Assembly: GCA_913009475.1 (NCBI GenBank) | Contig: CAJVYJ010000001.1 | Coordinates: forward strand, 1-31,402 | Direction: 5' to 3' | DNA: 31,402 bases | Origin: an uncultured Actinomycetes bacterium | GTDB lineage: Bacteria > Actinomycetota > Aquicultoria > CAJVYJ01 | In this document: piece by piece, positions 1 through 17,703 of the stretch | Position numbering within the stretch: the first letter of the stretch is position 1 | How the letters are laid out: the number at the start of each line of letters is the position of its first letter | Made by a program: the position numbers and the translations under genes | Notes under the pieces: model-generated | Seen by the model: only the letters and a program-made list of their open reading frames with translations | Told to the model about the DNA's origin: nothing | Databases searched by the model: none

Positions 1-56
1 TACAGCTTGCTTTACGTGTGTGATTCTATTCTGATTTTATTGTTTTTTTTTTTTTT

Positions 57-122
57 CAAGCAGAAGACGGCATACGAGATATATCAGTGTGACTGGAGTT
101 CAGACGTGTGCTCTTCCGATCT
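57..122 (+). other. Illumina TruSeq indexed (P7) adapter, sequencing artefact
   Basis: CAAGCAGAAGACGGCATACGAGAT (57-80), index ATATCAGT (81-88) and GTGACTGGAGTTCAGACGTGTGCTCTTCCGATCT (89-122). Bases 1-56, including the poly-T, are read-through beyond the adapter. Confidence 0.99.
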
Positions 123-140
123 GGCAATGTTTTTACGCAA
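123..140 (-). CDS. aroK: Probable 5' fragment of shikimate kinase, cut by the adapter
   Basis: TTG-CGT-AAA-AAC-ATT-GCC (MRKNIA) starts 2 nt after the aroC stop, with AGGGG upstream. It resembles typical AroK N-termini and aroC-aroK is a common order, but only 6 codons are visible. Confidence 0.4.
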
Positions 141-142
141 GC

Positions 143-1297
143 TCAACCCCTAAGAGTTTCAATATATGACTGATAGTTGTTTTTAAATTCCGCCATGGAG
201 TCACCGCCAAATTTCACTTGGGTCGCCTTGGCTAATTCAATCGCCGTCATATGCTCTCCGATGACCGCCGCCGCCGGTACCGCACAAATATCGGAACGCT
301 CGCGGCCGGCCAATACCGCGGCTTTAGTTTGAATATCCACACTTTTAAGCGGTGCTCCCAGGGTGGGAATCGGTTTCATCCCCGCCCTAAGGATTAATGT
401 TTCCCCATTACTCATACCGCCTTCAATCCCACCGCCATGATTGGTCTCACGCCAATATCCGCGTTCGTTATCATAAAATATCTCATCATGGGCCTCAGAG
501 CCGGGCCGTGACGCCAAAACCATGCCGTCACCGACTTCCACCGCCTTGATGGCGGGAATACTCATCAGCGCTCTGGCTAAGTTAGCGTTCAAGCGTTCAT
601 CCCACTGGCGATAACCGCCCAGGCCAGGAACGACACCAAAGGCCAAAACCTCAAAAACCCCCCCGACCGTATCTTTCTTCTCCCTGGCCGACTCGATTGC
701 CTTAACCATAAGCGCACTGCTCTCTTTATCAAAACAACGCACCGGTGACTCATCGATAACCGATAAATCGCTAAACGTCGGTTGCAGACCGGGCCGGACA
801 TTAATCGGGCCGATGCCAACTACATGGCTGATAATACTAATATTGATTTCTTGTAAAATTCGCTTGGCGACCGCTCCCACCGCTACCCGCGCCGCTGTCT
901 CACGAGCACTGGCCCGTTCTAATATATTGCGAATATCCGATTGTCCGGTCTTTAAGATACCACTTAGATCAGCATGACCAGGCCGTGGAGCGGTTACAAG
1001 CGTAGCACCGGAGCCATCACCTTCCACCGGCATCCGCTCGCGCCAATTATCCCAATCACGATTGTTGATTTTTAAACTGATAGGGCTGCCGATAGTCTCA
1101 CCAAAGCGGACGCCGCTTAAGATCTGAACTTTATCGCGCTCGATTTTCATCCGACCACCGCGCCCAAAACCAAGCTGTCGCCGCGCCAGCTCTTTATTGA
1201 TATCATCCGGACTCAGCTTTAAACCGGCAGGCACACCTTCAATAACAGCCGTCAAAGCCGGGCCATGGGACTCTCCCGCTGTCAGAAATCTTAACAT
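143..1297 (-). CDS. aroC: Chorismate synthase
   Basis: Motifs LRFLTAGESHG, RPGHAD, LERASARETAARVAVG, GGIEGGMSNG and MKPIPTL, plus a RSD-containing C-terminal signature. ATG at 1297 is preferred; the ORF track starts at 1303. Confidence 0.97.
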   Translation of the reverse strand: MLRFLTAGESHGPALTAVIEGVPAGLKLSPDDINKELARRQLGFGRGGRMKIERDKVQILSGVRFGETIGSPISLKINNRDWDNWRERMPVEGDGSGATLVTAPRPGHADLSGILKTGQSDIRNILERASARETAARVAVGAVAKRILQEINISIISHVVGIGPINVRPGLQPTFSDLSVIDESPVRCFDKESSALMVKAIESAREKKDTVGGVFEVLAFGVVPGLGGYRQWDERLNANLARALMSIPAIKAVEVGDGMVLASRPGSEAHDEIFYDNERGYWRETNHGGGIEGGMSNGETLILRAGMKPIPTLGAPLKSVDIQTKAAVLAGRERSDICAVPAAAVIGEHMTAIELAKATQVKFGGDSMAEFKNNYQSYIETLRG

Positions 1298-1330
1298 TTG
1301 CACTCATTTCCTAGATTTAGATAATTTTCA

Positions 1331-1362
1331 ATTAATAGATCTCTTTACCGAGGTCTATTAAT
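1331..1362. terminator. AT-rich hairpin between the pilP-like gene and aroC (possible terminator or operator)
   Basis: ATTAATAGATCTC-N6-GAGGTCTATTAAT, 13-bp arms with one mismatch. There is no good U-tract on the minus strand. Confidence 0.3.
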
Positions 1363-1416
1363 AAAATATTTTATCACAGAAATGGATTAAGAGAACGATA
1401 AGAAGATGGTTGATAA

Positions 1417-2058
1417 TTATTTATAGACTTCCTGGCCGACATTGAGCGTAAATTGATCGTCGCCATATAATAATGTCACATTATCACTGCCGATCTGCTG
1501 CACCTGGTAAGGCGAACTCCCGACTTGGTCGCCGGTTTTAAGTTCATAGTCAGTACCGTCGTAATTAATAACGGCAAAGTTTATACCATCCCGGTTAACA
1601 ATATTTTTCAATAATAAAGACTTCTTAGCGGGAGCCGGTGTTGTCGTTGAATTAACGGTTCCCGACGTGTTTACAGCCGGCGGCAAACCCGGTGGCGGTG
1701 TAGCAGTAACTGTCGCCGTAGCTTCTTTAATAGCAGGCTTAAAAGGATCGCGAGTCTGATAGACTTCAAAATTACTGTTAAGATCCTCATTGTTAATACC
1801 ATCGTTAATATCGGATGTCGAACTGGTTTCCGTCTTGGCCGCAATGTTGTTGCTCTTAGCTACAACTTTTTTCGGCTGAGAATTATCGATTGCTTTAACC
1901 GTGGATTGACTATTGCCGCCTTTAAGAATAGACGTTAAGATAATAATCAATATGATTGCCAAGATACCGATTGCCGTAGCAATGGACACAATGCGACCCT
2001 GCTTGGTCTGGGAAAAGTTTTTAACTTTATCTATTAAGTTTTCTTCTTTATCTGCCAT
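1417..2058 (-). CDS. PilP-like membrane-anchored pilus assembly protein
   Basis: Single N-terminal TM helix, RDPFKP motif typical of PilP/GspC-like proteins, Pro/Thr-rich linker and small beta-rich C-terminal domain. It follows pilO. No lipobox was seen. Confidence 0.6.
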   Translation of the reverse strand: MADKEENLIDKVKNFSQTKQGRIVSIATAIGILAIILIIILTSILKGGNSQSTVKAIDNSQPKKVVAKSNNIAAKTETSSTSDINDGINNEDLNSNFEVYQTRDPFKPAIKEATATVTATPPPGLPPAVNTSGTVNSTTTPAPAKKSLLLKNIVNRDGINFAVINYDGTDYELKTGDQVGSSPYQVQQIGSDNVTLLYGDDQFTLNVGQEVYK

Positions 2059-2070
2059 GATTTCTCACTT

Positions 2071-2706
2071 TTATTTAACCTCCGCCGACGATTTATTTTG
2101 CCCCGCAGGCGCTGATTGACCCTGAGTTTCCGGCGGCTTCGGCAATGCCGTCTGTCCGGTACTGTTAAGTTTGAACGTCTTAGCCTTAATACCTACTTCA
2201 ATGGTTGGATATTCCTTCTCCGAGCTTGTAATCGTAACCCCGATTATAGATACCTTTCGCGCCATGTTTTCAAGCCGGTAAAGATAGTCTACTAAACTAT
2301 AAAATGTACCGCTGGCCTTAATATCGAATGGAATTTCCGAAAAACCGCTTTTATCAACAACGTCATTGATTTTAGCGGACTTGAAATCAAGGCCGGAGAC
2401 ATCAGCCAAGTCCTGTAATTCTACCAGCATAGACGGCACTTCGGCATCCACCGGCAGACGCCTGGTGATCTTAATCAGATTAGCCTCAATTTGCGCTGAC
2501 TCACTTTTAATGGACTTCAACCGCTGCAAATTTAATTTTGCTTGTTCCAGTTTACTTGTTTGTGCTTCTCGTTCTGCGGCCAAACTTTGAAGATGCTGAA
2601 ACTGCGGACGAATAAGCAACATAAAGACCAGAGCAACAAAAAGCGCAAAAAAACCAATTAGCGCTAATATCTGGTCTCTGGACGATAGGCGATTAAAGAA
2701 CTTCAC
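2071..2706 (-). CDS. pilO: Type IV pilus alignment protein PilO
   Basis: N-terminal TM and coiled coil, RLPVDAEVPSMLVELQDLA and G(T)FYSLVDYLYRLE patterns; follows pilN. Confidence 0.88.
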   Translation of the reverse strand: MKFFNRLSSRDQILALIGFFALFVALVFMLLIRPQFQHLQSLAAEREAQTSKLEQAKLNLQRLKSIKSESAQIEANLIKITRRLPVDAEVPSMLVELQDLADVSGLDFKSAKINDVVDKSGFSEIPFDIKASGTFYSLVDYLYRLENMARKVSIIGVTITSSEKEYPTIEVGIKAKTFKLNSTGQTALPKPPETQGQSAPAGQNKSSAEVK

Positions 2707-3359
2707 TTTGACGCTCCTACATTATTCCCAGAAGCAGGCGGGGCAGGGACTGCAGAAACGGTCTTAGCTATCTCCGGCTGCTTTATCTTAGCCGTGGTTG
2801 TAAATTTTATTTTGCCGCTGGTCTTATCTTTAAAACGTTCCGATGAGGTCAGCCAAACATCGGTTAAACTATCGACCTGTCCCAGATGAACCAACCATTT
2901 AGCGACTAACTTATAACCAATATCAGTGCTTTGGCTGGTATCGGACTCCGTCAAACCTTCAAATGTAATTACCTTGTCATCACCTTTAATCTGAGTCAAC
3001 CAAACATCATTTGGTATAATTAAACTTACGTCATTTAAAAATTTTGACCAGGCGAAATTAGAATTTGAAATTGAGGCAATCAGCTTCTTCCGCTGTTCAA
3101 GCTGGCTTTGTTTATTTTGGAAGATCTGTACTTCTTTTATGGCCGTTTCATATTTAGTGTTTTCCGCTTCCAGCTGCTGGACGACTCTGTCTCTACCGGA
3201 AATCCTGATCATATTAAAACCATAAATAACGAAGAGCAGCCCCGCAAGCACAATACCGACAAACAGAGCATAGACCAACCTATTTTCTCCCCTCCGTTTA
3301 TCTATCACTTCTTGAGGTAAGAGATTAATATTAACTCTCTTGGAGCCGTTTTCAGTCAT
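2703..3359 (-). CDS. pilN: Type IV pilus alignment protein PilN
   Basis: INLLP PilM-binding motif, TM, coiled coil and WSKFLNDVSLIIPNDVWLT core. Confidence 0.9.
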   Translation of the reverse strand: MTENGSKRVNINLLPQEVIDKRRGENRLVYALFVGIVLAGLLFVIYGFNMIRISGRDRVVQQLEAENTKYETAIKEVQIFQNKQSQLEQRKKLIASISNSNFAWSKFLNDVSLIIPNDVWLTQIKGDDKVITFEGLTESDTSQSTDIGYKLVAKWLVHLGQVDSLTDVWLTSSERFKDKTSGKIKFTTTAKIKQPEIAKTVSAVPAPPASGNNVGASK

Positions 3360-4494
3360 TATTTAATCCTTGTAACGCTAAGCCAATTGGTATCGCCATC
3401 GATGGTTCTTCGGAAACCAAGGCTTCCGCTTCCAGCTTAGGACTGATTTTTATCTTAGCAAGTGGAGTCCCCAGTTCGACTTTTGATTGTAGGCCATTCT
3501 CCAGATAATCAGTGATGTTGGTTAATCTAGCTCCGTTACCCGATAAGATAATGCGAGACACCTTCCTGACTTTAGTCGCTTGAGTTAAATAATAGTCAAG
3601 TGAGCGGCGGAGTTCAGCCACAAAGTAAGCTATCTGAGTTTCCAATACTCGCCGGACAGCATCTTCCTGGGTCCCTTCCTCAGGGTCAATAGGGTTTTCC
3701 TCTTCTTTTTGGGTTAATTTCGGCAACCCGACCTTGCGTTTTAACTCATCAGCCACCTCAAAAGAGACATTGAGCGCATCGGATATAGCTCTATTCAGGT
3801 CATCACCCGCCATAGGAGTAACACGAGCAAAACGCGGCATTCCATCTTCGACTACGACAATATTGGTCAGCCCGGAACCTATATTGATTAGCGCCGTCGC
3901 CGACTCTACCGAAGTATCGTCATCCTCAGGCAAGAAAGTATTGGTATCATCAAGAAGCGACCTGACAATCGCGAAAGCGGATAGGTCGACAACTTGCGGC
4001 CTAAGCCCAGCTTTCTCGACAGCGCTGATGGTGTTGTTGATTAAATCTTTTTGTGCCGCCACTAACAGCACTTCAATCATTTTCTCATCATTTTCGCCTA
4101 AGAATTGATTGACTATTTGCGCGTCAATAATCGCTTCATTAATTGGAATGGGGATATAGTCTTGCGCTTGAAATTGAATAGCTCCCTTAAGCTCATTTGG
4201 CTCCATAAAAGGAAGCTCGATTAAACGAACAATAACTTTTTGGCTGGCGATGCCAATCGTCACATCTTTACCTGACAAACCACTTTTTTTCCATAATTGG
4301 GTTAAGGATTGAGATACGGTCTCGACATCAATGATCTCACCCTCGACTACGGAACCGACCGGAACTTTGATTTTGGCGTAGTTGGCTAAGGTATTGGTTG
4401 CAGCGCCTGGAGTAATTTGCGCGGCCCGAAAATGGCCTGTACCTATATCTAGGCCTATTGGTGTGGCTGATCTGCCAAATGGAAAAATGCCCAA
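3352..4494 (-). CDS. pilM: Type IV pilus assembly protein PilM (actin-like)
   Basis: IGLDIG N-terminus, VLLVAA, LINIGSG, ELRRSLDYY, ILSGNGA and IPIGLAL motifs. TTG start with a GGAGGA RBS. Confidence 0.93.
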   Translation of the reverse strand: MGIFPFGRSATPIGLDIGTGHFRAAQITPGAATNTLANYAKIKVPVGSVVEGEIIDVETVSQSLTQLWKKSGLSGKDVTIGIASQKVIVRLIELPFMEPNELKGAIQFQAQDYIPIPINEAIIDAQIVNQFLGENDEKMIEVLLVAAQKDLINNTISAVEKAGLRPQVVDLSAFAIVRSLLDDTNTFLPEDDDTSVESATALINIGSGLTNIVVVEDGMPRFARVTPMAGDDLNRAISDALNVSFEVADELKRKVGLPKLTQKEEENPIDPEEGTQEDAVRRVLETQIAYFVAELRRSLDYYLTQATKVRKVSRIILSGNGARLTNITDYLENGLQSKVELGTPLAKIKISPKLEAEALVSEEPSMAIPIGLALQGLNND

Positions 4495-4644
4495 TCTTCG
4501 AATCCTCCTGTGACTTCTATTTCTTCATCTGCTACAAATATTTCTGCGCTAATTATAGTAATCAAGCTATATAAGCTGTTTAATACAGGCAAAACCAACT
4601 ATTTATGATAGCATATCTTAAATTTTATTTCATTACTTAATAGA

Positions 4645-4672
4645 TTATCGGTTAAGCGAAAGCTATCCTTTA
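4645..4672 (-). promoter_or_regulatory. Putative sigma28/WhiG-type promoter for pilMNOP
   Basis: Minus strand reads TAAAGGAT-N12-ACCGATAA, i.e. TAAA-N16-(G)CCGATAA. Spacing is the same as at the pilA and pilT sites. Confidence 0.6.
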
Positions 4673-4755
4673 GGAGCCTGTCTAAATATTCCGCTTCGTC
4701 AAAGTTATGAACGCCGTTCCTCTTTTCCCTGTCACTACACTCTTCCTTGGTTACA

Positions 4756-4783
4756 GAATTGTCAAGATTGAAGATCTGACCCC
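4756..4783 (+). repeat. 28-bp inverted repeat, left copy
   Basis: GAATTGTCAAGATTGAAGATCTGACCCC is the exact reverse complement of 8802-8829 and lies 2 nt beyond the pilD stop codon. Confidence 0.95.
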
Positions 4784-4785
4784 TT

Positions 4786-5580
4786 TTAGAGTATGAAACC
4801 GATATACCATTGAAATAGTTCATAGCCAAAAAAGAGCGTCAACATCGCTCCCAGGCTTAAATAAGGACCGAAAGGCAATAAGTCTTTGCGGCTCTTATGG
4901 AAAAAAGCCATAGATATAATACCTGCCAACGAACCCAGTAAAAAACCTATAAAGAGCGCTATGAGCACATAGCGGCCGAGAAATATACCCATAAATGCCG
5001 CTAGCTTAATATCGCCGCCGCCCATCCCACCCGGACGGACCATCGCAATAATCAATAGCAGACCGCCGCCTAAAACAAAACCGATTGCCATCTCCAAATA
5101 ACCCACGCTGCCGACAATCGGCATGGCTTGACGGCCTGCCAAACCGGCGGCAACAGCTAATATCGGCACTACGACCAGCGAGGGCAGAATAATGCGGTTA
5201 GGAATTATCTGCCGTTGCGCATCAACTACCGCGACCGTCAATAAAACTAACAGCATCAGCGCCGCAAATATGAATTTGAGGTCAACGCCGAATTTAAAAA
5301 AGGCAGCCACCAGCAATAAAGCGGTTGTTAATTCAACCAACGGATATTGCCACGATATCGGCCGGCCGCAATGGCGGCACCGTCCCCGTAACCAAAACCA
5401 ACTGAGCAGAGGGATATTATCATACCAACTTAATCCCTCACCGCACTTCGGGCAGTGAGAGCCCGGCCAGACTATCGATTCTTTACGCGGCACCCGATAG
5501 ATTATAACATTCAAGAAACTGCCGGTCGCCAAAGCAAAGGCGATAATTACTGATAATATAAAAATCAATGCCAACTCCAT
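4786..5580 (-). CDS. pilD: Prepilin peptidase / N-methyltransferase
   Basis: GSFLNVIIYRVP, SHCPKC and RCRHC Zn-binding domain, D-x-x-x-x-IIP, MGGGDIKL and PFGPYL motifs; multiple TM segments. Confidence 0.96.
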   Translation of the reverse strand: MELALIFILSVIIAFALATGSFLNVIIYRVPRKESIVWPGSHCPKCGEGLSWYDNIPLLSWFWLRGRCRHCGRPISWQYPLVELTTALLLVAAFFKFGVDLKFIFAALMLLVLLTVAVVDAQRQIIPNRIILPSLVVVPILAVAAGLAGRQAMPIVGSVGYLEMAIGFVLGGGLLLIIAMVRPGGMGGGDIKLAAFMGIFLGRYVLIALFIGFLLGSLAGIISMAFFHKSRKDLLPFGPYLSLGAMLTLFFGYELFQWYIGFIL

Positions 5581-6267
5581 CTATTTTACTCCGTTTCCGG
5601 AAAGATCAATGCCGTCCTTACCCTTATCAGCATAACGCTCTTTTTCTTTAATAATCAGGGCGGCTTTTTTGGTCTCTCCTAGTTTATTATATATTGCCGC
5701 CAGCTCATCACGAGCATTGTTAAAATTAGGCTCAAGCTTTAGGACCCGCCTGAAGGCGGCCTTGCTCTTCTCCCAGCGGCCTAATTTTTTATAAAAATAG
5801 GCAATCGCCAATTCGTACTGATAATTCTTAGGATCAAGCCGTATCGCCTTTTCCATCTTCTTAACCGCTTCTTCCCGCTTATCCATCTGATTAAAATAGA
5901 GATAGGCCTGATACGCATAGTACTGGGCTTTACCGCCATTTAAACTAACAGCCTTATCAAGCTCTTTCTTCGCCATTTTACTATTTTTTTCAGACAAGTA
6001 GATAGTTCCTAAGTTGAAATAGGCCGTGGCCGAATTAGGATTTAATTTCAATGCCTTTATAAAATTTTTCTTCGCTAAATTAAAATGACCGCTTTTTTGA
6101 TTTTTGATTCCAACGCGTAAAAACTTGTCTACCCTTATCCGACGCGACCCCTGATAACTGATAATCGCTAAAACAAACATTAAAACCAGCGACAACCCTA
6201 CTAAAGGTTTTTGTCTATTCATCGGTTTTTTCCTTTTCATCTTTAACTTATTATCCCTTAATTTCAT
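5581..6267 (-). CDS. Membrane-anchored TPR protein
   Basis: One N-terminal hydrophobic helix, then TPR-like helices (ALKLNPNSATAYFNLG, AIRLDPKNYQY, VLKLEPNFNNA). The start codon is uncertain because there are several Met residues. Confidence 0.8.
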   Translation of the reverse strand: MKLRDNKLKMKRKKPMNRQKPLVGLSLVLMFVLAIISYQGSRRIRVDKFLRVGIKNQKSGHFNLAKKNFIKALKLNPNSATAYFNLGTIYLSEKNSKMAKKELDKAVSLNGGKAQYYAYQAYLYFNQMDKREEAVKKMEKAIRLDPKNYQYELAIAYFYKKLGRWEKSKAAFRRVLKLEPNFNNARDELAAIYNKLGETKKAALIIKEKERYADKGKDGIDLSGNGVK

Positions 6268-6314
6268 TCTATTTAGGCTATTTTTACTTTAAATAATTCT
6301 CAAAATCAGCCGCT

Positions 6315-8168
6315 TCAGTTTTTACGGACCGCTTTGTCGCTAACGTAGCCGGCCGTTTTCCTCCCCATAAGCGCCTGCGTCTTAGCAATCTTGCTCTTGA
6401 CTGTTGAAGAATATTTAACTAATCTATCCGCCTGCTCAAAACTTGCCAGCGCCGCGGGTAGAGTCGGTCTATTTAGCAGCTGATTCTCGGTTAGATAAAC
6501 ATCACCCAGACCCGCGTGAGCATCCACATAATCCGGCTCAGCTTTAGTGAGACGCTTATAAGTAATCGCCGCCGCCTGAAAATCACTTACTGTTTTGTGT
6601 TTAGCCGCGTATTTTAGTTGTGACAAGCCCAAATAAAGCTGATACCTCATCTCGTAAGGATTAAAAGCCACCGCTAACTTATTTTCCTTAACTACCTTGT
6701 TCCATGTGGCTGAATCAGCCGCAATAAATCCCTCGTTAAAATGGTAGTCGGCCAATTGAACTCTAGCGATAAAAAAAATACCGGTGGAAACCGTTGCCAG
6801 AAGCAATAAAGCCGCCGATACCCTGAAGATTACCTTGGGAAATCTTATTGATATGGAACGATAATTCTTTTCGCAAAGTGCCATACCGATAGCGGCCAGA
6901 CTCCAAAAAAACGGTGATAACTCCACGGTCGAGAAATAAGCTTGGATAAATATTAAATAAGCGATAATAGACGCTGTTAAGCCCCATAATACCGCCTCTT
7001 TTTCACCGCCGGCAGCGCGCGCGCCCTTGATCAGTCCACCGACAAGCGCTATTAAAAGCGCCAGATAAGCCGCTAGGCCTAAAATCCCCATATTTGACGC
7101 TGTCTGCAGAAATTCATTATGAGCCTTATCTACCGGCCGGCCTTCCGTATCACGTACTTTCCAATCGGCGGGACGATTTAACCTGTAAGCATAGTTAAAA
7201 GTGTCGGGGCCATAGCCGAATATCGGCCGTTTGGCTAAAGACACCAGCGCCACCCGCCAGTATAATAACCGAGCTGATTCATTCATATTAATCTTATTTA
7301 TACTGGCCGACCGGAGATCGACATCTTGATTGGTTGAAGCACTGCCAACCAACACCACGGATAAAAATAGGAGTAAAGCAATAAAACCAATAATCAATAT
7401 CCTAAGATTAAGCCGGTGACGATAAACTACCAATAAAATAAAAATACCAAGGCCGACGCCAATCCAAGCGCTTTTTGTATGTGATAAATATAAGACCGGT
7501 AGAGCCAAAATCAGATTAACCGTAGCTAATATAGCTTCGGAGGAACGATAATTTTTGTTTATTATTAACGCCAGCGACACCGGTATGGTAAGAGTCAAAA
7601 AACCGCCCAAAAAACCGGGGTTGCCCCAGAGCGCCGCTAGCCGCGAACCGTCCAAGGCCAGTTCCGGAAAGAGTGAATATCCGAAAAATTCAAATACGGC
7701 GTAAACACAGACTATAATAGAAGCGAGCAACAAAATAGATAGATAATCCAGAGCTCGTTTTTGGTTAGAAAAAAGTTGATATATAAGTGTAAATAATAAC
7801 GCGTAACTTAAGAGGGCCAGTAGGCCGTCATAGCGCATAAACCAACCAAAAATCGCCGTAGTTCGGCTGACTGAAAATATCGTCGAGGCAGCGGCGGCTA
7901 AAAGATAAATAAAAATAAACAGGTGAAGCCGGGAAAGTCTTACTCTAAGAGCACCATGAATACTAGCCCCTAATAGCCAAAAAAAGACACCTATTAATAG
8001 TAACCCGAAAAAAATAGTTACTTTTATTAATGAGTAAGGTTGAAAACCCCAGGGATTAATAGCTAAGGGAATGAGTAATGTCATACCTAGGATAATAATC
8101 CGACTAACATTTGTAGAAAAAGAAAACTCATCAACCCGATCTACCGCTGCTACGACTGTTGTTGCCAA
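6315..8168 (-). CDS. O-antigen-ligase (Wzy_C) family protein with C-terminal TPR-like region; candidate pilin O-oligosaccharyltransferase
   Basis: About 12 TM segments, R-x-x-A-x-x-GNP, RLLYW, PIFGYGPDTF and KAHNEFLQ Wzy_C motifs, and a helical C-terminus. It lies directly downstream of the pilin. TTG start. Confidence 0.8.
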   Translation of the reverse strand: MATTVVAAVDRVDEFSFSTNVSRIIILGMTLLIPLAINPWGFQPYSLIKVTIFFGLLLIGVFFWLLGASIHGALRVRLSRLHLFIFIYLLAAAASTIFSVSRTTAIFGWFMRYDGLLALLSYALLFTLIYQLFSNQKRALDYLSILLLASIIVCVYAVFEFFGYSLFPELALDGSRLAALWGNPGFLGGFLTLTIPVSLALIINKNYRSSEAILATVNLILALPVLYLSHTKSAWIGVGLGIFILLVVYRHRLNLRILIIGFIALLLFLSVVLVGSASTNQDVDLRSASINKINMNESARLLYWRVALVSLAKRPIFGYGPDTFNYAYRLNRPADWKVRDTEGRPVDKAHNEFLQTASNMGILGLAAYLALLIALVGGLIKGARAAGGEKEAVLWGLTASIIAYLIFIQAYFSTVELSPFFWSLAAIGMALCEKNYRSISIRFPKVIFRVSAALLLLATVSTGIFFIARVQLADYHFNEGFIAADSATWNKVVKENKLAVAFNPYEMRYQLYLGLSQLKYAAKHKTVSDFQAAAITYKRLTKAEPDYVDAHAGLGDVYLTENQLLNRPTLPAALASFEQADRLVKYSSTVKSKIAKTQALMGRKTAGYVSDKAVRKN

Positions 8169-8294
8169 AATAACGCGACCTTTGCTGTGAATTATGGTTT
8201 AAATATCAAACTGTTTAGTTGTTGGCAGATAATATATTTCTTAAGTTATAACTATATATCGGTTTAAAGAAAAAATAGTTAAATTAAAAAAGGC

Positions 8295-8331
8295 AAAAAA
8301 ATCGACCGGCATTTAAGTGCCGGTCGATTTT
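8295..8331 (-). terminator. Intrinsic terminator after pilA
   Basis: Minus strand reads AAAATCGACCGGCA-CTTAAA-TGCCGGTCGATTTTTTT, a perfect GC-rich stem followed by a U7 tract. Confidence 0.85.
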
Positions 8332-8368
8332 AACCTAAATAACTTTAGTCTTTTTTATTAATTAGCGT

Positions 8369-8710
8369 TTAGTAAGTAGTACCCTCATCATCTTGCGCAT
8401 GAGCCGGAGCAGATGAAGTGGCAGCCACATATGTATAATCGCCGCCGCCTAACGGATCAGAAGGCATCTTTTTAATATAGGTTGGAATTAAGTCTGATAT
8501 AGCACTTGGCTCCGTATTATTGACCGATATATAAGTTTGGATGGCTCCATCCAAGGTCCTTAAGTTAGCCTGAGCGGATTTTACTTTAGCATTTTGTGAA
8601 GCATTCATAAATACGGGCACAGCAATGGCTACTAAGATACCAATAATAAGAACAACTACCATTAACTCAATTAAAGTAAAGCCTTGCTCGCCTCTGAGTG
8701 ATTTCAACAT
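8369..8710 (-). CDS. pilA: Type IV pilin, probable major pilin (113 aa prepilin)
   Basis: Class III signal MLKSLRGEQG|FTLIELMVVVLIIGILVAIAVP with Glu5. GGGAGGTG RBS lies 7 nt before ATG 8710, so the longer ORF start at 8794 is unlikely. It has its own promoter and terminator. The mature protein has no Cys. Confidence 0.92.
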   Translation of the reverse strand: MLKSLRGEQGFTLIELMVVVLIIGILVAIAVPVFMNASQNAKVKSAQANLRTLDGAIQTYISVNNTEPSAISDLIPTYIKKMPSDPLGGGDYTYVAATSSAPAHAQDDEGTTY

Positions 8711-8754
8711 TTTAATACACCTCCCTTCCATGTTGGAAATATCTCTTATGACTT

Positions 8755-8782
8755 TTATCGGCTGTTGACCGTAAAAACTTGA
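8755..8782 (-). promoter_or_regulatory. Putative sigma28/WhiG-type promoter for pilA
   Basis: Minus strand reads TCAAGTTT-N12-GCCGATAA. The -10 is a perfect sigma28 match and the -35 matches TAAAGTTT at 7/8. Confidence 0.75.
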
Positions 8783-8801
8783 TAAAAATTCCATATCAAA
8801 T

Positions 8802-8829
8802 GGGGTCAGATCTTCAATCTTGACAATTC
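8802..8829 (-). repeat. 28-bp inverted repeat, right copy
   Basis: GGGGTCAGATCTTCAATCTTGACAATTC is the exact reverse complement of 4756-4783 and lies 19 nt upstream of the pilA -35 box. Confidence 0.95.
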
Positions 8830-8883
8830 AGTTACGGATTATGGATAACGGAGAATTAATTAAAAATACAAAACGGAATAGCG

Positions 8884-8922
8884 CGGTTAGCCGTGGATTC
8901 CCGATCGGGGTCGGGAATGACA
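8884..8922 (+). repeat. 39-bp direct repeat copy 1 (CGTC/TGTC-type REP-like palindrome)
   Basis: CGGTTAGCCGTGGATTCCCGATCGGGGTCGGGAATGACA matches 9126-9164 at 38/39 and contains the hairpin ATTCCCGA-N6-TCGGGAAT. Confidence 0.85.
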
Positions 8923-8930
8923 ATAGTGCA

Positions 8931-8997
8931 AGGGTAGAGCGTAGAGGGTCGAGGGTAGAAAAAACGTGAGAGCGTAAGGAGTACGGGCATGAGATGT
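8931..8997 (+). repeat. Degenerate heptamer tandem repeat
   Basis: AGAGCGT-AGAGGGT-CGAGGGT followed by GAGAGCGT-AAGGAGT. A second short heptamer run (TTACGGA-TTATGGA-TAACGGA) is at 8832-8852. Confidence 0.6.
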
Positions 8998-9021
8998 GTA
9001 GGGTGGGTTTTGTCCTCGCCC
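8998..9021 (+). repeat. GTAG-tagged REP-like imperfect hairpin
   Basis: GTAGGGTGGG-TTTTGTC-CTCGCCC: a GTAG tag followed by a 7-bp stem with two G-T pairs. Confidence 0.45.
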
Positions 9022-9063
9022 GTGAAAACTGACGTTTCTTGTTATACTCAGCTCGCTTACGTT

Positions 9064-9091
9064 TGTCATTCTCAGCTTGACTGGGAATCCA
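9064..9091 (-). repeat. Diverged inverted copy of the REP-like palindrome
   Basis: TGTCATTCTCAGCTTGACTGGGAATCCA. Its reverse complement TGGATTCCCAGTCAAGCTGAGAATGACA resembles the 39-bp repeat core and forms an inverted doublet with 9136-9164. Confidence 0.7.
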
Positions 9092-9125
9092 GGTAAAGAG
9101 GTGCACTGGGAAGCATGAAAAGGCT

Positions 9126-9164
9126 CGGTTGGCCGTGGATTCCCGATCGGGGTCGGGAATGACA
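9126..9164 (+). repeat. 39-bp direct repeat copy 2
   Basis: CGGTTGGCCGTGGATTCCCGATCGGGGTCGGGAATGACA. Partial copies are at 9172-9185 and 9241-9251. Confidence 0.85.
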
Positions 9165-9190
9165 GTGGTAAGGGTCGGGAATGACGGTAC

Positions 9191-9228
9191 ACCCCCACCC
9201 CAGCCCTCCCCCGTCCAGGGGGAGGGAG
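9191..9228. repeat. BoxC-like C-rich/G-rich element containing a G-quadruplex motif on the minus strand
   Basis: ACCCCCACCCCAGCCCTCCCCCGTCCAGGGGGAGGGAG contains a 9-bp hairpin (9204-9212/9218-9226). The minus strand of 9192-9212 reads GGGGGAGGGCTGGGGTGGGGG. Confidence 0.7.
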
Positions 9229-9357
9229 AAATTTGTTAAACGGGAATGACAAGTGAAAAAAAGATTACGGATTGGGAAATTATAGGTGGATGCCGGCTCT
9301 TGGCCATAGATACATTAATATATTCGAAATTCCTATTTCCAAAAGGGGAAGAAAAAA

Positions 9358-10575
9358 TTACGATTTAATCAGGTTGATCAAGCCAAACATCGGCAAATAC
9401 AAAGAGATAATGATACCGCCGACGACGATGCCCATAAAGACTATCATTAGTGGCTCGATCAGCGAAGTCAATGACTCGACTAAATTACCGACTTCCTCAT
9501 CGTAAAAATCGGCGATCTTAATCAACATGGAATCAAGAGCGCCGGTCTCTTCACCAACCGCTATCATCTGTACGACCATCGGCGGGAAAACCGGACTTTT
9601 CTCTAAAGGCTGAGCGATAGTTTCGCCCTCTTTAATACTCAACCTGGCGCTTCTTATCGTGCCGGAGATAACTTCATTGTTGGCGGTATCGGCGACAATA
9701 TCCATCGCTTGCAATATCGGCACACCACTGGAGATCAGGGTTCCAAAAGTTCTGGTAAACCTGGCAATTGCTAGCTTGGTAAAGAGCTGCCCGAAGACGG
9801 GAAGTTTTAGTTTGAACTTATCAAGCTGCAGTCGGCCGGAATCGGAATTCTTATAAATTTTAAAAAGATAACGCGCGCCGAAAACTAAGCCGATCAATAT
9901 ATACCAGTAATTATGGATCACGTCGCTGCTAAAAACCAGTAACTTGGTAGGTAAGGGAAGATCACCACCTAATTGGGCGAACATGTTGACAAAGACTGGT
10001 ACCACGAAGGTAACCATGGCAAAGACAATCAGCATCGACATTATAAACATCGCTATCGGATAGGTCATCGCCGCTTTTATCTTACTCTTGATGGCGATAT
10101 CTTTCTCGTAATGGTCGGCGACTCTAAGCAATACGTCATCTAAAACGCCGCCGGTTTCGCCGGCCCTTACCATATTTACAAAAAGATTGGAAAATACTCG
10201 CGGATGTTTAGCCAGCGCCTCGGATAAGGTTTGCCCTGCTTCCACGTCTTTTTGTATTTTTGTGATGACCTCGGCAAACGTCGGATTTTCCACTTGTTCC
10301 GCTAGAATATGCAGCGCTTTGGTCAGAGATAGACCGGCATTGATCATAGTAGCGAACTGGCGGCTGAAAATGGTTATCTCTTTGATTTTAACCTTTTTCT
10401 TGCGGCCGATATTAAAACTAAGGTTTTGGCTGGCGGATTTAGCGCTTACGTTTAGAACCGTAAGTCCCTTCTGCCGCAGTTTGGTTACTACGGTGGTTAC
10501 GCTGTCACCTTCCAGGGTGCCGCTGGTAACTTGGCCGCTTCTATCCTTGACCTTGTAAGCAAATGTTGTCGCCAT
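9358..10575 (-). CDS. pilC: Type IV pilus platform protein PilC
   Basis: FAYKVKDRSG start, FSRQFATMINAGL, MVRAGETGG, KAAMTYP, VQMIAVGEETG and LIEP motifs (two T2SSF domains). Confidence 0.96.
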   Translation of the reverse strand: MATTFAYKVKDRSGQVTSGTLEGDSVTTVVTKLRQKGLTVLNVSAKSASQNLSFNIGRKKKVKIKEITIFSRQFATMINAGLSLTKALHILAEQVENPTFAEVITKIQKDVEAGQTLSEALAKHPRVFSNLFVNMVRAGETGGVLDDVLLRVADHYEKDIAIKSKIKAAMTYPIAMFIMSMLIVFAMVTFVVPVFVNMFAQLGGDLPLPTKLLVFSSDVIHNYWYILIGLVFGARYLFKIYKNSDSGRLQLDKFKLKLPVFGQLFTKLAIARFTRTFGTLISSGVPILQAMDIVADTANNEVISGTIRSARLSIKEGETIAQPLEKSPVFPPMVVQMIAVGEETGALDSMLIKIADFYDEEVGNLVESLTSLIEPLMIVFMGIVVGGIIISLYLPMFGLINLIKS

Positions 10576-10585
10576 ACCTCGCCTC

Positions 10586-11650
10586 CTATCCGATTCTGCC
10601 TAAAATCTGTCTGACCTCTTGAGGATTACTGGCTTGTGCTATCGCCAGATCAAACCCTATTTTTCCTTGGCGATAAAGTTCCGACAGACTTTGATCCATA
10701 GTTTGCATACCATATTTTTGACCGGTCTGTATGGCGTTGTATATCTGATGTGTTTTCGCTTCACGTATCAGATTTCTAACGCCCGGCGTCGGTATCAAAA
10801 TCTCCACCGCCGGTACTCGACTGTTGCCGTTGCGAACAGGAAGTAACTGCTGACACATTATACATTGTAAGCTGCCCGCCAACTGCATCCTGACCTGCGA
10901 TTGCTGATGAGGCGGAAAAACATCGATAATGCGGTCGATTGTCTGCGGCGCATCTTGCGTATGTAAAGTAGCCAGAACTAAATGTCCAGTTTCAGCCGCG
11001 GTCAGCGCGGTAGAGATGGTTTCCATATCACGCATCTCGCCTACAAGTATTACATCCGGGTCTTGACGCAAAACATACTTCAACGCGTTGGAGAAGGAGT
11101 TGGTGTCATTGCCTATCTCCCGCTGATTAATGATGGATTTTTTATGCTTATGAAGATATTCGATCGGATCCTCGACGGTTATAATATGAACCGAACGATT
11201 GGTGTTGATATAATCGATAATAGCTGCCAGAGTAGTTGATTTACCACTACCGGTCGGTCCGGTTATCAAAACAAAGCCTCTGGGTTTTTTGGCGACCTTT
11301 TCTAGTATACGCGGCATACCCAATTCCTCAAGCGTACGAATCCTAATTGGTATCAGCCTAAAAGCCGCGGCTAAACTGTTCCTTTGAAAGTAAATATTGA
11401 CCCTAAAGCGGGAATGGCCGGGTACAGAATAAGACATGTCAAATTCTTTCTTACGTTCGACTTGCTCACGCTGTTCTTGAGTTAAAATACTATAGATGAT
11501 TTCTTGAGTATCGGTGGCCGTCAATTTAGGATAACTTAATCTACTAAGCGCTCCATTAATTCTGACGACAGGTGGGACGCCCACCGTTATGTGAAGGTCT
11601 GAGGCGCCCTTTTCCAATACTTCTATCAGTAGATCGTTGATATAAATCAT
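10586..11650 (-). CDS. pilT: Type IV pilus retraction ATPase PilT
   Basis: ASDLH, Walker A GPTGSGKST, TVEDPIE, LRQDPDVILVGEMRD, ETGHLVLATLHT and a GVRNLIRE (AIRNLIRE-type) motif. Confidence 0.97.
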   Translation of the reverse strand: MIYINDLLIEVLEKGASDLHITVGVPPVVRINGALSRLSYPKLTATDTQEIIYSILTQEQREQVERKKEFDMSYSVPGHSRFRVNIYFQRNSLAAAFRLIPIRIRTLEELGMPRILEKVAKKPRGFVLITGPTGSGKSTTLAAIIDYINTNRSVHIITVEDPIEYLHKHKKSIINQREIGNDTNSFSNALKYVLRQDPDVILVGEMRDMETISTALTAAETGHLVLATLHTQDAPQTIDRIIDVFPPHQQSQVRMQLAGSLQCIMCQQLLPVRNGNSRVPAVEILIPTPGVRNLIREAKTHQIYNAIQTGQKYGMQTMDQSLSELYRQGKIGFDLAIAQASNPQEVRQILGRIG

Positions 11651-11710
11651 GTATCTTCCCTTTCGCTTACAAACTACGCTGGCTATAGTCGAATTTTCAC
11701 ATACTCTTTA

Positions 11711-11738
11711 TTATCGGCTAGTTTATTGCGTAACTATA
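11711..11738 (-). promoter_or_regulatory. Putative sigma28/WhiG-type promoter for pilT-pilC
   Basis: Minus strand reads TATAGTTA-N12-GCCGATAA, with a perfect -10. The -35 overlaps the pilB2 stop codon. Confidence 0.68.
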
Positions 11739-13392
11739 CAACTACTCTCATTATCTCTTCTATCGAAGTTAAGCCCATTTTTATTTTCTCGAACCCGTCA
11801 TCTTTCAAAGTCCTTAGGCCCTCCTCTATTGCTACTTTCCTGATATCATCAGCGCTGGCTCGATCGACGGTCAACTGCTCGATTTTTTCGCTCATCGGCA
11901 TAATCTCATATAACCCGACTCGGCCTTTATAACCGGTATTATTACATTTGCCACAGCCAACCGGGCGATATAAAATAGGCAGCTCTTCCCCGCTGATTGG
12001 AAAGCCGGAGTTTTTTAGGGCCGACGCCGGTGGTTGGTATTCTTCTTTGCACTCCGGGCATAAACGCCGGGCCAACCTTTGCGCTTGAACGCAAGCTACG
12101 GCTGAAGAAATTAAAAATGGAGCTATGCCCATCTCCGTCAACCGGCTGATGGCACTGGGAGCGTCATTGGTATGGAGGGTACTTAAAACCAGATGCCCGG
12201 TAAGCGCGGCTTCAATGGCTATCTGCGCCGTCTCTTTGTCCCTGATTTCACCGATCATAATAATATCGGGTGAAGCCCGCAAAATCGCCCGTAAACCGCG
12301 GGCGAAGGTCAGCCCGGCCTTAGTATTTATTTGCACTTGATTAATACCGGGCAGACGATATTCGACTGGGTCCTCAACGGTAATAATATTCTTTCGCTCA
12401 TCGTTTATCGTATTAAGAGTAGCGTAAAGAGTAGTTGATTTACCACTGCCGGTCGGGCCGGTTACTAAAATAGCTCCATAAGGGCTCGTATATGCTTTTT
12501 TAAAACGCTCTAAGCTCTTGGGCATAAAACCCAGATCATTTAAGTTCAGCATAATACTGTCTTTTTCTAAAACTCTTAAGACGACGCGTTCCCCATAGAC
12601 AGTCGGAAGTGTCGCCACGCGAAAGTCAACGCCGCGACCGCGAATAGTCAAGGCGCAACGCCCATCTTGGGGCTTTCTTGTTTCCGCGATATCCATGCCC
12701 GCCATGATTTTTAAACGTGATATTATCGCTGATTGCACATGTTTGGGTGAGCGCATTATCTCCTGTAAAACACCGTCGATACGATAACGTATCCGCAAAT
12801 CTTTCTCCATCGGTTCTACGTGTATGTCGCTGGCTCGACTTTCCACGCCTTGAGAAATAATAACGTTTACTAATTTAACTATCGGCGCTTCTTCGGTAAA
12901 GCTTGTAAGCTCACTTAAATCTTCTTCAGGATTAAGATCTTCATCGGATAATGTTTCCGCCATCTGATGATAGCGGCCTATGTTGGCTTCAATATCTTCT
13001 TTGGTGGCAATAACCGGTATAATCTCATAACCGGTTATCATTTTAAGGTCATCACCAGCGACAAGATTATCCGGTGAGACCATTGCGACTACCAACTTGT
13101 TGCCGTCAAAATCTAAAGGTAAAACCAGATATTTTCGGCAAACTTCTTCCGGCACAACAGCGATAGCGTTAGCGTTGACTTTAGCGTCACTGATATCGAC
13201 AAAGGGAATGCCGATCTGCTCAGCCAACTTTGATATCAAGACCGAGCTATTGATGTCAGCCAGTTCGACCAGACACCGGCTAAGAGGCACTCCGGTCAGT
13301 CGGTGCACCGCTATGCAGTCAATATAATCAGGCTCCGTTATAAGTTCGGCTTTAACTAAAAACGCGCCGAATCGTTCAATAATATCGCTCAC
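11734..13392 (-). CDS. pilB: Type IV pilus extension ATPase PilB, paralogue 2
   Basis: ASDIHVEP, RKPQDGR, GPTGSGKSTT, TVEDPVE, IMIGEIRD, GHLVLSTLHTND, CPEC and CGKC Zn sites; degenerate MshEN-like N-terminus. Confidence 0.95.
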   Translation of the reverse strand: MSDIIERFGAFLVKAELITEPDYIDCIAVHRLTGVPLSRCLVELADINSSVLISKLAEQIGIPFVDISDAKVNANAIAVVPEEVCRKYLVLPLDFDGNKLVVAMVSPDNLVAGDDLKMITGYEIIPVIATKEDIEANIGRYHQMAETLSDEDLNPEEDLSELTSFTEEAPIVKLVNVIISQGVESRASDIHVEPMEKDLRIRYRIDGVLQEIMRSPKHVQSAIISRLKIMAGMDIAETRKPQDGRCALTIRGRGVDFRVATLPTVYGERVVLRVLEKDSIMLNLNDLGFMPKSLERFKKAYTSPYGAILVTGPTGSGKSTTLYATLNTINDERKNIITVEDPVEYRLPGINQVQINTKAGLTFARGLRAILRASPDIIMIGEIRDKETAQIAIEAALTGHLVLSTLHTNDAPSAISRLTEMGIAPFLISSAVACVQAQRLARRLCPECKEEYQPPASALKNSGFPISGEELPILYRPVGCGKCNNTGYKGRVGLYEIMPMSEKIEQLTVDRASADDIRKVAIEEGLRTLKDDGFEKIKMGLTSIEEIMRVVV

Positions 13393-13423
13393 AGTTGACG
13401 TCTCTCCTTAAATCATAAATATA

Positions 13424-13948
13424 TTAAGCGCTCTTGATTAGATTGTTATCTTTTTCGTCTTTATTGCTTAAAAGTACTGATAATATTCCCTGTTTGGCTG
13501 CATCTTTATTACGTACGCTAATATTAATTTGCGGACATCCGGCGACCAATTTTAATTTCTGCTGTAATTTCTTTAATTCGCCGGCCTTTTTTATATCATT
13601 AAATACGACCAAATAGGGTAAGCCCAAGGAAGCTAATTTATCAATCAATGTTTTGGCTTTCTCGATTTTATTTTTGGAATCATTGGAATTGACGATTATA
13701 ATTAGACCCGCTAAATCCTTGGCCGCTCGCTGCCAAATAACTTTATAACTATCCGCCAGCGGCGTTCCAATCAGAAATAAATACTGATTCCTGTCAATCT
13801 TAATGTGTCCCAATTCCATTTCTTGATAAGGAAAATCCGCCGAAAACTTTTTTTTCAGCTTGATTACTCTGCTCTCACCGGCACTCTCTATAAAAGTCGA
13901 CACTAAGGTAGTGTCGACACCGGTTATGATAATATTTATAAATTCCAT
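13424..13948 (-). CDS. MglA/CvnD-like small GTPase fold with a degenerate P-loop (putative pseudo-GTPase)
   Basis: The layout IIITG...STF / ELGHIKI / LFLIGTP / GLIIIVN / LPYLVVFN parallels MglA and ATP_bind_1 proteins, but GxxxxGK(T/S) reads GVDTTLVS and GTPGQ reads GTPLA. Confidence 0.6.
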   Translation of the reverse strand: MEFINIIITGVDTTLVSTFIESAGESRVIKLKKKFSADFPYQEMELGHIKIDRNQYLFLIGTPLADSYKVIWQRAAKDLAGLIIIVNSNDSKNKIEKAKTLIDKLASLGLPYLVVFNDIKKAGELKKLQQKLKLVAGCPQINISVRNKDAAKQGILSVLLSNKDEKDNNLIKSA

Positions 13949-13989
13949 GAAACTTTTCTTTCTGTGAATACATTACATTTATAATTAGT

Positions 13990-15054
13990 TCAGGCGTTAA
14001 GCTCTTCTTTTAATTTGGTAATTGCCTTATTTAAGGAATCGGCTTTTAAGGAATTATCAGTGATTATCTTTTCCAACTTAAATTTCTTCGCACCTACTTT
14101 GTCGGTAAGAACATCATCATTTGTTAACGCCGACAGCTCGTCTATGAAGTCTCTTCTATAGATGGACAATTCATTGGCTACCATATTATCCAAGCCCTCA
14201 ATGTCCAACTGCGTTAATATCTCTTTTTGTTTATTTTTATCAAGAGCCGAGGATGGAGCGGACTCGGCGGCAGGCTCTTTTTTCAAATTCGAGACGGTTT
14301 TGGACATCTTTGGTTCCGCCTTGATTTTATGCTTTTCTTTTACATGCGATAGTTTTAAAAGACCTGAAACTACTAGGTCAGACAGCAGAGAGCTGGTAAC
14401 AAACTCACTTTTTTTACTTTTTAGCGCCAACTCCGTTACACTACGTTTACCGTCGATAAAACGGAGTAACTTCCAATGCTCTTGGTTTAAAGAGGAGTCT
14501 TGATAATTAGCGGCCTTACCACTGACGGCAAAGACAGCGCTAACTGATGGTACTTGTTTTTGAACTCGACTCCATTCACCGCGCCGTTGGTTACTCTCCA
14601 ACAAGACCTTTTTAGCATTTACCAGTAAACCGATGTCTTCAATGGCCGGTAAATTCGGCAAGAATTGAAAATCACCTTCCTCCCAAGGAAGTAGGTCAAA
14701 AACTGTTGATTGTATCTGCTCACGCACAATTTTCTTCAATATCTCCGGTGAGATCAAACCTTCAGCTACTAATATTTGGCCGATTTTTCTTCGTTTCTTA
14801 TCTTTTTTCTGAAGTTCTAAAGCTTGAATTAGATTTTCTTCAGTTATATATCCACCTTCTATCAAGCGTTCGCCAATGGGAACACGATTAAAATTGGATA
14901 CGGCCCCGAATATTTTGCCGTTACGAAAGTAGACAAAAGCCTCAGCCTCACCTTGAGACCGAACGATATGAAGCGTACCGGTTTTTTTACCGGTATGTAT
15001 AAGCTGAAAAATATGTTCCAGGCTAAAGTCGCTAAGGTTGCCGCCAAGCGCCAA
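13990..15054 (-). CDS. DUF4388 (PATAN-like) protein with an internal MshEN-like tandem motif
   Basis: LGGNLSDFSLEHIFQLIHTGKKTGTLHI N-terminus, W-x-EG-x-F-x-F and a winged-helix-like IDGKRSV segment. Residues about 57-113 are MshEN-like. TTG start with an AGGAG RBS. Confidence 0.8.
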   Translation of the reverse strand: MALGGNLSDFSLEHIFQLIHTGKKTGTLHIVRSQGEAEAFVYFRNGKIFGAVSNFNRVPIGERLIEGGYITEENLIQALELQKKDKKRRKIGQILVAEGLISPEILKKIVREQIQSTVFDLLPWEEGDFQFLPNLPAIEDIGLLVNAKKVLLESNQRRGEWSRVQKQVPSVSAVFAVSGKAANYQDSSLNQEHWKLLRFIDGKRSVTELALKSKKSEFVTSSLLSDLVVSGLLKLSHVKEKHKIKAEPKMSKTVSNLKKEPAAESAPSSALDKNKQKEILTQLDIEGLDNMVANELSIYRRDFIDELSALTNDDVLTDKVGAKKFKLEKIITDNSLKADSLNKAITKLKEELNA

Positions 15055-15088
15055 TTTATGCTCCTAATTAATATTATATTTTACGTTT

Positions 15089-17633: not shown

Positions 17634-17703
17634 AATTTGTTCCTATTAATGAGATTTGTATACTCCTCTATACCCTCTTTGACAATGACCTTCCCTCGTT
17701 ATC

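Follow-up and report, generated by a model that had tools for sequence, protein, structure and literature searches.

Introduction

Sigma-28 promoters read by FliA or SigD in Escherichia coli, Salmonella and Bacillus subtilis follow the pattern TAAA(G)-N15/16-GCCGATAA, and FliA-family sigma factors of Actinoplanes missouriensis drive both flagellar and zoospore pilus genes. Here we describe three promoter boxes of this kind in a type IV pilus (pil) cluster, located before pilT, pilA and pilM on the minus strand of a 31,402-nt stretch of DNA (hereafter the window, to which all box coordinates refer). The window belongs to an Actinomycetota metagenome-assembled genome (MAG) of 1.82 Mb, with 44% GC, 89% completeness and 239 contigs.

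The closest described system is that of Rubrobacter (Schumacher et al. 2021, PMC8325347). There, an (RsiG)2-(c-di-GMP)2-WhiG switch, built around cyclic dimeric GMP (c-di-GMP), controls the type IV pilus cluster of R. radiotolerans and R. xylanophilus (PDB 7LQ2-7LQ4), which confirms the link between WhiG, RsiG and type IV pili in Rubrobacter that the original prediction for this window had named. Twelve WhiG promoters of R. radiotolerans are start-site-verified, three of them in the pilus cluster, where they define three units, and five before diguanylate cyclase (DGC) or phosphodiesterase (PDE) genes; five single-motif RsiG proteins have been published. A preprint covering 673 reference genomes (Denis et al. 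2026, PMC12871210) gives T(A/C)AA-N16-GCCGATAA as the consensus of the WhiG2 clade and predicts that WhiG acts on pilus genes in Cellulomonadaceae, Cryptosporangiaceae, Sanguibacteraceae, Rubrobacteraceae and Jonesiaceae.

We are highly confident that the three boxes of the window are genuine promoters read by the only sigma-28-family factor of this genome, a WhiG of the WhiG2 type, and the units that they head are probably gated by RsiG and c-di-GMP. The locus resembles the Rubrobacter system in belonging to a unicellular actinobacterium that combines WhiG with a small single-motif RsiG, in having three WhiG-type promoters that would divide the pilus cluster into three units with the same consensus and N16 spacing, and in carrying candidate WhiG boxes before diguanylate cyclase genes. 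It differs in that the host is a low-GC (44%), uncultured marine lineage outside Rubrobacteria, in that its RsiG motif contains His in place of the Gln of the solved single-motif structures, and in that the promoters are known here from sequence rather than from mapped starts, with two near-consensus sites as candidate DGC targets. Several relatives furthermore add a c-di-GMP-I riboswitch in the pilA leader, and no such element is described in the consulted sections of PMC8325347. Compared with FliA/SigD systems, the promoter grammar and sigma family are the same; unlike them, no flagellar genes or FlgM were found in the 89%-complete genome, pili are the only output, and the anti-sigma factor is RsiG-like rather than FlgM. 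The case extends a switch known from Rubrobacter to a further lineage, without showing a new mechanism.

Three equally spaced boxes in the pil cluster

The boxes are as follows.

11738-11711, minus strand: P_pilT, TATAGTTA-N12-GCCGATAA; in the tetramer reading, TATA(GTTA)-N16-GCCGATAA
8782-8755, minus strand: P_pilA, TCAAGTTT-N12-GCCGATAA; in the tetramer reading, TCAA(GTTT)-N16-GCCGATAA
4672-4645, minus strand: P_pilM, TAAAGGAT-N12-ACCGATAA; in the tetramer reading, TAAA(GGAT)-N16-ACCGATAA

Spacing is the same in all three, with 12 nt between the 8-mers, equivalent to N16 after the tetramer, and their joint form can be summarised as T(A/C/T)AA-N16-(G/A)CCGATAA with TATA, TCAA and TAAA as the tetramers. 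The -10 end of P_pilT lies 60 nt before the pilT ATG (11650), and this box overlaps the final codons of pilB2; P_pilA ends 44 nt before the pilA ATG (8710) and P_pilM 150 nt before the pilM TTG (4494). Each box sits on the gene strand, in an intergenic gap and less than 200 bp upstream of a start codon. The three equally spaced minus-strand boxes are present at the coordinates given in the original prediction, and Pfam confirms the gene names. Relative to the published WhiG2 consensus (PMC12871210), P_pilA is an exact match and P_pilT and P_pilM have one mismatch each; the spacing agrees with that consensus, for which 15-17 nt is tolerated, in line with the sigma-28 box grammar that had been claimed. 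The search rule of PMC12871210 (exact -35, one mismatch) would nevertheless miss P_pilT because of its TATA.

The pattern THWA-N16-RCCGATAA, picked after the sites had been seen, matched three times in the window, versus a mean of 0.13 in 100 dinucleotide shuffles, one of which reached three. We also scored all positions of the 1.82-Mb genome with a two-block matrix trained on sites of relatives only, the window's own genome being excluded. P_pilA (score 22.9) ranked 1st genome-wide, P_pilM (21.9) 5th and P_pilT (19.0) 13th.

Conservation of the boxes in relatives

Orthologous pil loci from 20 genomes of the same class (300 kb), which are not independent samples, carry boxes at the same three places: upstream of pilT, upstream of pilA, and either behind pilD or ahead of pilM. 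On the sense strand 55 boxes fall outside mapped genes and 8 are genic, whereas the antisense strand has 4 in all, 2 of them outside mapped genes. The 55 boxes are spaced by N16 (34), N15 (18) or N17 (3), their spacers hold 0.02-0.26 bit of information per position, and the positions left free by the search match the sigma-28 consensus (G after TNAA in 41/55; G or A before CCGATA in 48/55). CCGATA was found upstream of orthologous pilT in 18 of 29 relatives, the full two-box form at 13 of the 20 fetched loci, and a box upstream of pilA at 14 of the 19 loci with mapped pilA. Boxes for pilM at -180 to -193 in L117, L119 and L129 lie at a distance like that of P_pilM; other relatives have a box directly behind pilD. 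Over the mapped loci, the distance from box to start codon was 30-190 nt. The motif is conserved upstream of orthologues of pilT, pilA and pilM, in many relatives from several families, and the approximately 55 conserved promoters offer a clean set for defining WhiG specificity in low-GC Actinomycetota.

These results bear on whether AT-rich intergenic DNA could have given rise to the boxes by chance. The genome contains GCCGATAA 334 times, mostly within coding sequence, which by estimate is far over the expectation from base composition, and when up to two mismatches are allowed, control spacings yield matches as readily as N16 does: the two-mismatch rule returned 67 matches genome-wide at N16 versus 37-63 at other spacings. 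Likewise, an 8-mer -35 element (at least six of eight positions matching TAAAGTTT) combined with CCGATA was found genome-wide 17 times at N12 versus 10-27 times at other spacers, and the published loose query T[AC]AA-N16-GCCGA showed no genome-wide excess. Such loose definitions are too permissive at 44% GC, where only near-perfect sites or a trained matrix discriminate; published mismatch-tolerant searches, including the two-mismatch rule of PMC8325347, are unspecific at this GC content. Stricter forms of the motif gave 13 intergenic matches at N16 and 10 at N15, versus 4-8 at other spacings. Against chance stand the excess over shuffled sequence in the window and the high ranks under the independently trained matrix; the conserved position across families, together with the 55 to 2 ratio of sense to antisense non-genic boxes, already contradicts it. 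We consider a chance origin barely credible.

A single WhiG-type sigma factor

A sigma-28-family gene was found on another contig of the genome.

C119:1293-2111, minus strand: WhiG-type sigma factor (TIGR02479, NF004935)

The original prediction held that the SigB/F-type sigma factor of the window was not cognate and that a sigma-28 factor should be encoded elsewhere. Consistent with this, the window sigma (28385-29179) reached 124.9 bits, under the cut-off of the family (TIGR02479, 189.6 bits), whereas the C119 protein reached 282.9 bits and is the sole family member above the cut-off in the genome. It also passed the NCBIfam WhiG equivalog model NF004935 (381 bits vs a cut-off of 343), and scored 317 bits to S. 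venezuelae WhiG (PDB 6pfj_A) versus 165 to E. coli FliA. Its closest matches came from Actinomycetota MAGs, among them Candidatus Aquicultor and bins that are either unclassified or labelled 'Coriobacteriia'.

The segment VKYVAGRV is identical in the C119 sigma and S. venezuelae WhiG, with K47, G51 and R52 corresponding to K57, G61 and R62; Lys57, Gly61 and Arg62 of S. venezuelae WhiG touch c-di-GMP and mark the WhiG2 clade. Of the sigma-4 residues in contact with RsiG (T235, L236, Y239, E240, L242), four out of five are kept. The WhiG2 factors of PMC12871210 share the K, G and R in sigma-2, the co-occurrence with RsiG and a gene location away from flagellar genes. On C119, the neighbourhood comprises a DprA-domain gene, a xerC-like gene, whiG, rpsB and tsf rather than a flagellar cluster, with a gap of 14 nt between the xerC-like gene and whiG. 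No box was found before whiG that would point to autoregulation. In Bacillus, this position is occupied by the fla/che operon, which has sigD at its end.

Among 41 genomes of the class, 38 encode a WhiG-type sigma. A search of the present genome, which is 89% complete, revealed no FlhA, flagellin or FlgM, and because the organism shows no flagellar genes, the sigma factor appears to be kept for pili rather than flagella. FlhA occurs in 10 of 41 relatives, and in eight of these a second FliA-type sigma is encoded within a few kb of flhA (L201-L208, from relatives G029, G034, G025, G026, G038, G030, G009 and G020), with Glu at the c-di-GMP-contact Gly. By its sequence this second sigma is a WhiG1-like paralogue, in a lineage outside the published survey. 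Since a Glu-for-Gly second sigma exists beside a WhiG2-type WhiG, the class shows the published WhiG1/WhiG2 split; as in PMC12871210, flagellated relatives have a flagellum-linked paralogue lacking the Gly, and type IV pilus and DGC genes are the predicted targets. The pilus targets lie, unlike those of that survey, in an uncultured class outside its five named families.

The WhiG2-type C119 protein is the only candidate reader of the boxes in this genome. An alternative is that the boxes serve a different sigma factor, for instance the SigB/F-type factor of the window, or act as operator sites of a DNA-binding regulator instead of promoters. The genome does contain further group-3 sigma genes, and the predicted start sites of the pil units are placed by box position. 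On the other hand, the combination of GCCGATAA and a TAAA 15-16 nt before it specifically marks the FliA/SigD/WhiG family, and the window sigma falls short of the family cut-off. Moreover, a two-block, strand-specific layout with fixed spacing and an uninformative spacer indicates a promoter rather than a dimeric operator, and the boxes lie 30-190 nt before start codons. These features make such a reader or operator very unlikely. The cognate WhiG, motif conservation and the published consensus support the earlier reading of the cluster as a sigma-28/WhiG regulon.

RsiG homologue and c-di-GMP

We then located a candidate anti-sigma gene.

L188:1432-1701 (contig C36), minus strand: RsiG homologue, 89 aa, single-motif, identified by motif and homology

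A strict regular expression requiring Gln in the RsiG motif had no match, a false negative, since the class uses His. A back-translated DNA pattern applied to five complete relatives led instead to the L156 protein of G023, which served as the query for 41 genomes. This twin-motif protein of 175 aa matches Rubrobacter and Streptomyces RsiG in the PDB, and as a query it gave one match per genome in 38 of 41 genomes, mostly proteins of 84-114 aa. The motif E(X)3S(X)2R(X)3[Q/H](X)3D is invariant in 22 class sequences (E30, S34, R37, H41, D45). A profile of the class proteins matched only RsiG chains in the PDB (6pfj_T at 1.5e-13, covering both helices; 7lq2_B at 3.2e-12). His often replaces Gln in the RsiG motif, with the same stacking contact possible, according to PMC8325347. 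Of the two regulators to be sought with a sigma-28 factor, rsiG or flgM, the former has a homologue, on C36, and the latter was not found.

Upstream of rsiG, a box was found in 2 of 24 relatives. At the end of C36 just upstream of the gene (L188 ~1735-1800, the last ~200 nt) we observed an Illumina index adapter with poly-T; because this contig end is assembly contamination, the native rsiG promoter region is missing. Twin-motif RsiGs of 175-177 aa occur in a few families (L156:1126-1653, plus strand, in G023; L164, L165, L167, L168) of this class, in which RsiG is otherwise single-motif. The G023 protein has two closely similar helices.

The genome contains 13 GGDEF genes, two of which are preceded by near-consensus boxes with one -10 mismatch each.

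C100:5015-5042, plus strand: TAAAGAAA-N12-GTCGATAC, 56 nt before a Cache-HAMP-GGDEF gene
C19:4661-4688, plus strand: TTAAGTTT-N12-GACGATAA, 31 nt before a GAF-GGDEF gene

These two boxes suggest possible feedback on c-di-GMP synthesis, as in Rubrobacter. Together, the single-motif RsiG homologue, the retained contact residues of WhiG and the 13 GGDEF genes strengthen the suggestion that the cluster may be c-di-GMP gated. By analogy with the solved Rubrobacter and Streptomyces complexes, a homodimer of the 89-aa RsiG with a c-di-GMP dimer would probably sequester WhiG, such that high c-di-GMP would turn the pilus units off together and low c-di-GMP would turn them on. A predicted complex of WhiG, two RsiG and two c-di-GMP scored 0.23 against a mark of 0.32, which speaks neither for nor against binding.

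It is also conceivable that the WhiG-dependent promoters are real and WhiG itself is not gated by c-di-GMP through the RsiG-like protein; this small protein would then have another role, or WhiG would be under some other control. Binding among RsiG, WhiG and c-di-GMP is deduced here by analogy, the motif has His where solved structures have Gln, one RsiG-contact residue in sigma-4 is changed, rsiG is unlinked to whiG and to the pil genes, and no NCBIfam model matches the RsiG-like protein. Several results counter these points: the five motif residues are invariant across the class, the profile finds only RsiG in the PDB, and a His at this position is documented and can stack on guanine. In addition, WhiG keeps K, G and R where the flagellar paralogue of relatives has lost the Gly, and WhiG was found in 38 of 41 genomes, RsiG likewise in 38 of 41. 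We regard ungated promoters as unlikely, although this is the most serious of the competing readings, and favour WhiG promoters that are probably gated by RsiG and c-di-GMP.

Several observations weigh against this interpretation. Within the boxes, the P_pilT tetramer is TATA instead of T(A/C)AA, and the first -10 base of P_pilM is A instead of G. Genome-wide, loose forms of the motif showed no enrichment of N16 over other spacings, and the regulon outside the pil cluster is weakly visible. The first unit of the cluster (pilB1-DUF4388-174aa-pilB2) has no WhiG-type box, and some relatives (G014, G017) carry WhiG and RsiG yet have no box at pilT or pilA. The sigma-4 contact residue that differs is a Thr replaced by Ala. 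Apparent absences (flagella, a second sigma) are provisional in an 89%-complete genome of 239 contigs. Finally, a sequencing-run search with window positions 4300-11900 returned marine metagenome DNA contigs only and no RNA run.

Class-wide wiring and a riboswitch in the pilA leader of some relatives

The ~240-nt pilA leader of seven relatives contains a c-di-GMP-I riboswitch (RF03167 or RF01051, scoring over the gathering threshold), placed directly downstream of the WhiG-type box.

Plus strand, c-di-GMP-I riboswitches: L116:9479-9554, L118:9381-9456, L126:9532-9606, L123:9704-9784, L130:9431-9506
Minus strand, c-di-GMP-I riboswitches: L124:8601-8676, L122:8441-8514

The pilA leader of the window itself is ~40 nt long. 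An Rfam search of window positions 1-18000 at E values up to 1 detected no riboswitch or other RNA in the leaders; the search of the genome with RF01051 also gave no match, a weak blank, as control genomes were equally silent.

What is new here is modest: the class-wide conserved wiring, many His-variant single-motif RsiGs, single and twin forms within one class, and the riboswitch layer. An uncultured marine class with small genomes appears to use the c-di-GMP-armed anti-sigma switch that governs sporulation in Streptomyces and pili in Rubrobacter; in this class a flagellar-type sigma has been kept without flagella and wired to all distal units of the pil cluster. The class-wide single-motif RsiGs support pilus control, and not sporulation, as the older role of the switch. 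Tentatively, and with considerable doubt, we propose that type IV pilus control is the ancestral, class-wide output of the WhiG2-RsiG-c-di-GMP switch, in a class whose single-motif RsiG is presumably homodimeric and of the His form, with dual control of the pilin and a record of RsiG duplication. Under this proposal, c-di-GMP would act twice on the pilin gene in part of the class, through the sigma/anti-sigma pair and the riboswitch, and the lineage of the present genome would have dropped the riboswitch layer. The class may likewise record the intragenic duplication behind the Streptomyces-type RsiG, or an independent repeat.

Gene map and transcription units

By Pfam, the minus-strand gene order is aroE, pilB1, a DUF4388/PATAN gene, a 174-aa gene, pilB2, pilT, pilC, pilA, a Wzy_C-type gene, a TPR gene, pilD, pilM, pilN, pilO, a 213-aa gene and aroC. 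Features downstream of the three boxes are listed below.

10586-11650, minus strand: pilT, retraction ATPase, opening unit 1 (Pfam T2SSE)
9358-10575, minus strand: pilC, following pilT in unit 1 (Pfam T2SSF)
8369-8710, minus strand: pilA, major type IV pilin, unit 2 (PF07963 N_methyl)
8331-8298, minus strand: intrinsic-terminator-like hairpin, 14-bp stem with T-run, directly 3' of pilA
6315-8168, minus strand: Wzy_C-type (O-antigen-ligase-like) gene (Pfam)
5581-6267, minus strand: TPR gene (Pfam)
4786-5580, minus strand: pilD, prepilin peptidase (Pfam)
3352-4494, minus strand: pilM, head of unit 3 (Pfam PilM_2)
2703-3359, minus strand: pilN, unit 3 (Pfam PilN)
2071-2706, minus strand: pilO, unit 3 (Pfam PilO)
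1417-2058, minus strand: 213-aa gene, unit 3

RNA polymerase with WhiG would start a few nt downstream of each CCGATAA box, and the three promoters would divide the distal two thirds of the cluster as follows: pilT-pilC as one unit; pilA, followed by the terminator and then Wzy_C-TPR-pilD, as a second; and pilM-pilN-pilO-213aa as a third. Read from the ATG at 8710, pilA begins with MLKSLRGEQGFTLIELMVVV, which carries the prepilin signature (PF07963) with the leader G/FTLIELMVV. Because the terminator-like hairpin sits directly behind it, pilA is likely a monocistronic unit, and Wzy_C-TPR-pilD would be reached by read-through from P_pilA or from a weak box at 8283-8256. The pilM TTG at 4494 is backed by a conserved TTGGGCATTTTTCC start in relatives. 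Comparison of the 144-nt pilM leader with those of four relatives showed no conserved small open reading frame and no obvious conserved element.

Weaker candidates and other observations

The weak box lies between pilA and the Wzy_C-type gene.

8283-8256, minus strand: candidate fourth promoter (weak), TTTA-N16-ACCGATAT or TTAACTAT-N11-ACCGATAT, with ACCGATAT at 8263-8256

Located just behind the pilA terminator, with the Wzy_C gene starting 88 nt further on, it scored 17.0 with the matrix (rank 44 genome-wide). It is absent in the closest relative, L115. In L120, L122, L126 and L132 a box does stand in the gap between pilA and the gene that follows. The strong terminator that precedes it makes the candidate plausible. 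Proposed originally as a weak promoter at 8256-8263 before an OTase gene, it is present and plausible at this rank, but exceeds the published two-mismatch limit. The other weak candidate, TAAC-N16-TCCGATAA at 15228-15201 on the minus strand, in the 3' end of pilB1, was rejected: although present, it scored at background (9.4), lies inside the pilB1 coding sequence and is without a counterpart in relatives. High-scoring sites on C56, C121, C31 and C116 had no same-strand downstream open reading frame and were left as probable chance matches.

Within the end of pilB1, directly before the DUF4388/PATAN gene, we observed a sigma-70-like match on the minus strand (GTGACG-16-TATAAT, 10/12, 15073-15100), which may serve the proximal unit as an internal promoter. 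A 38-nt inverted repeat, 92% complementary (4750-4787 / 8798-8835), flanks pilA-Wzy_C-TPR-pilD. P_pilA is 16 nt inside one arm. The other arm adjoins the stop codon of pilD, and P_pilM lies 78 nt outside it; the segment so bracketed may be an invertible or mobile cassette. A second locus, on contig C27 (1876-7234), contains three tandem pilT-like paralogues adjoining a GGDEF gene, and one of these paralogues (3182-4162) has two in-frame TAG stops.

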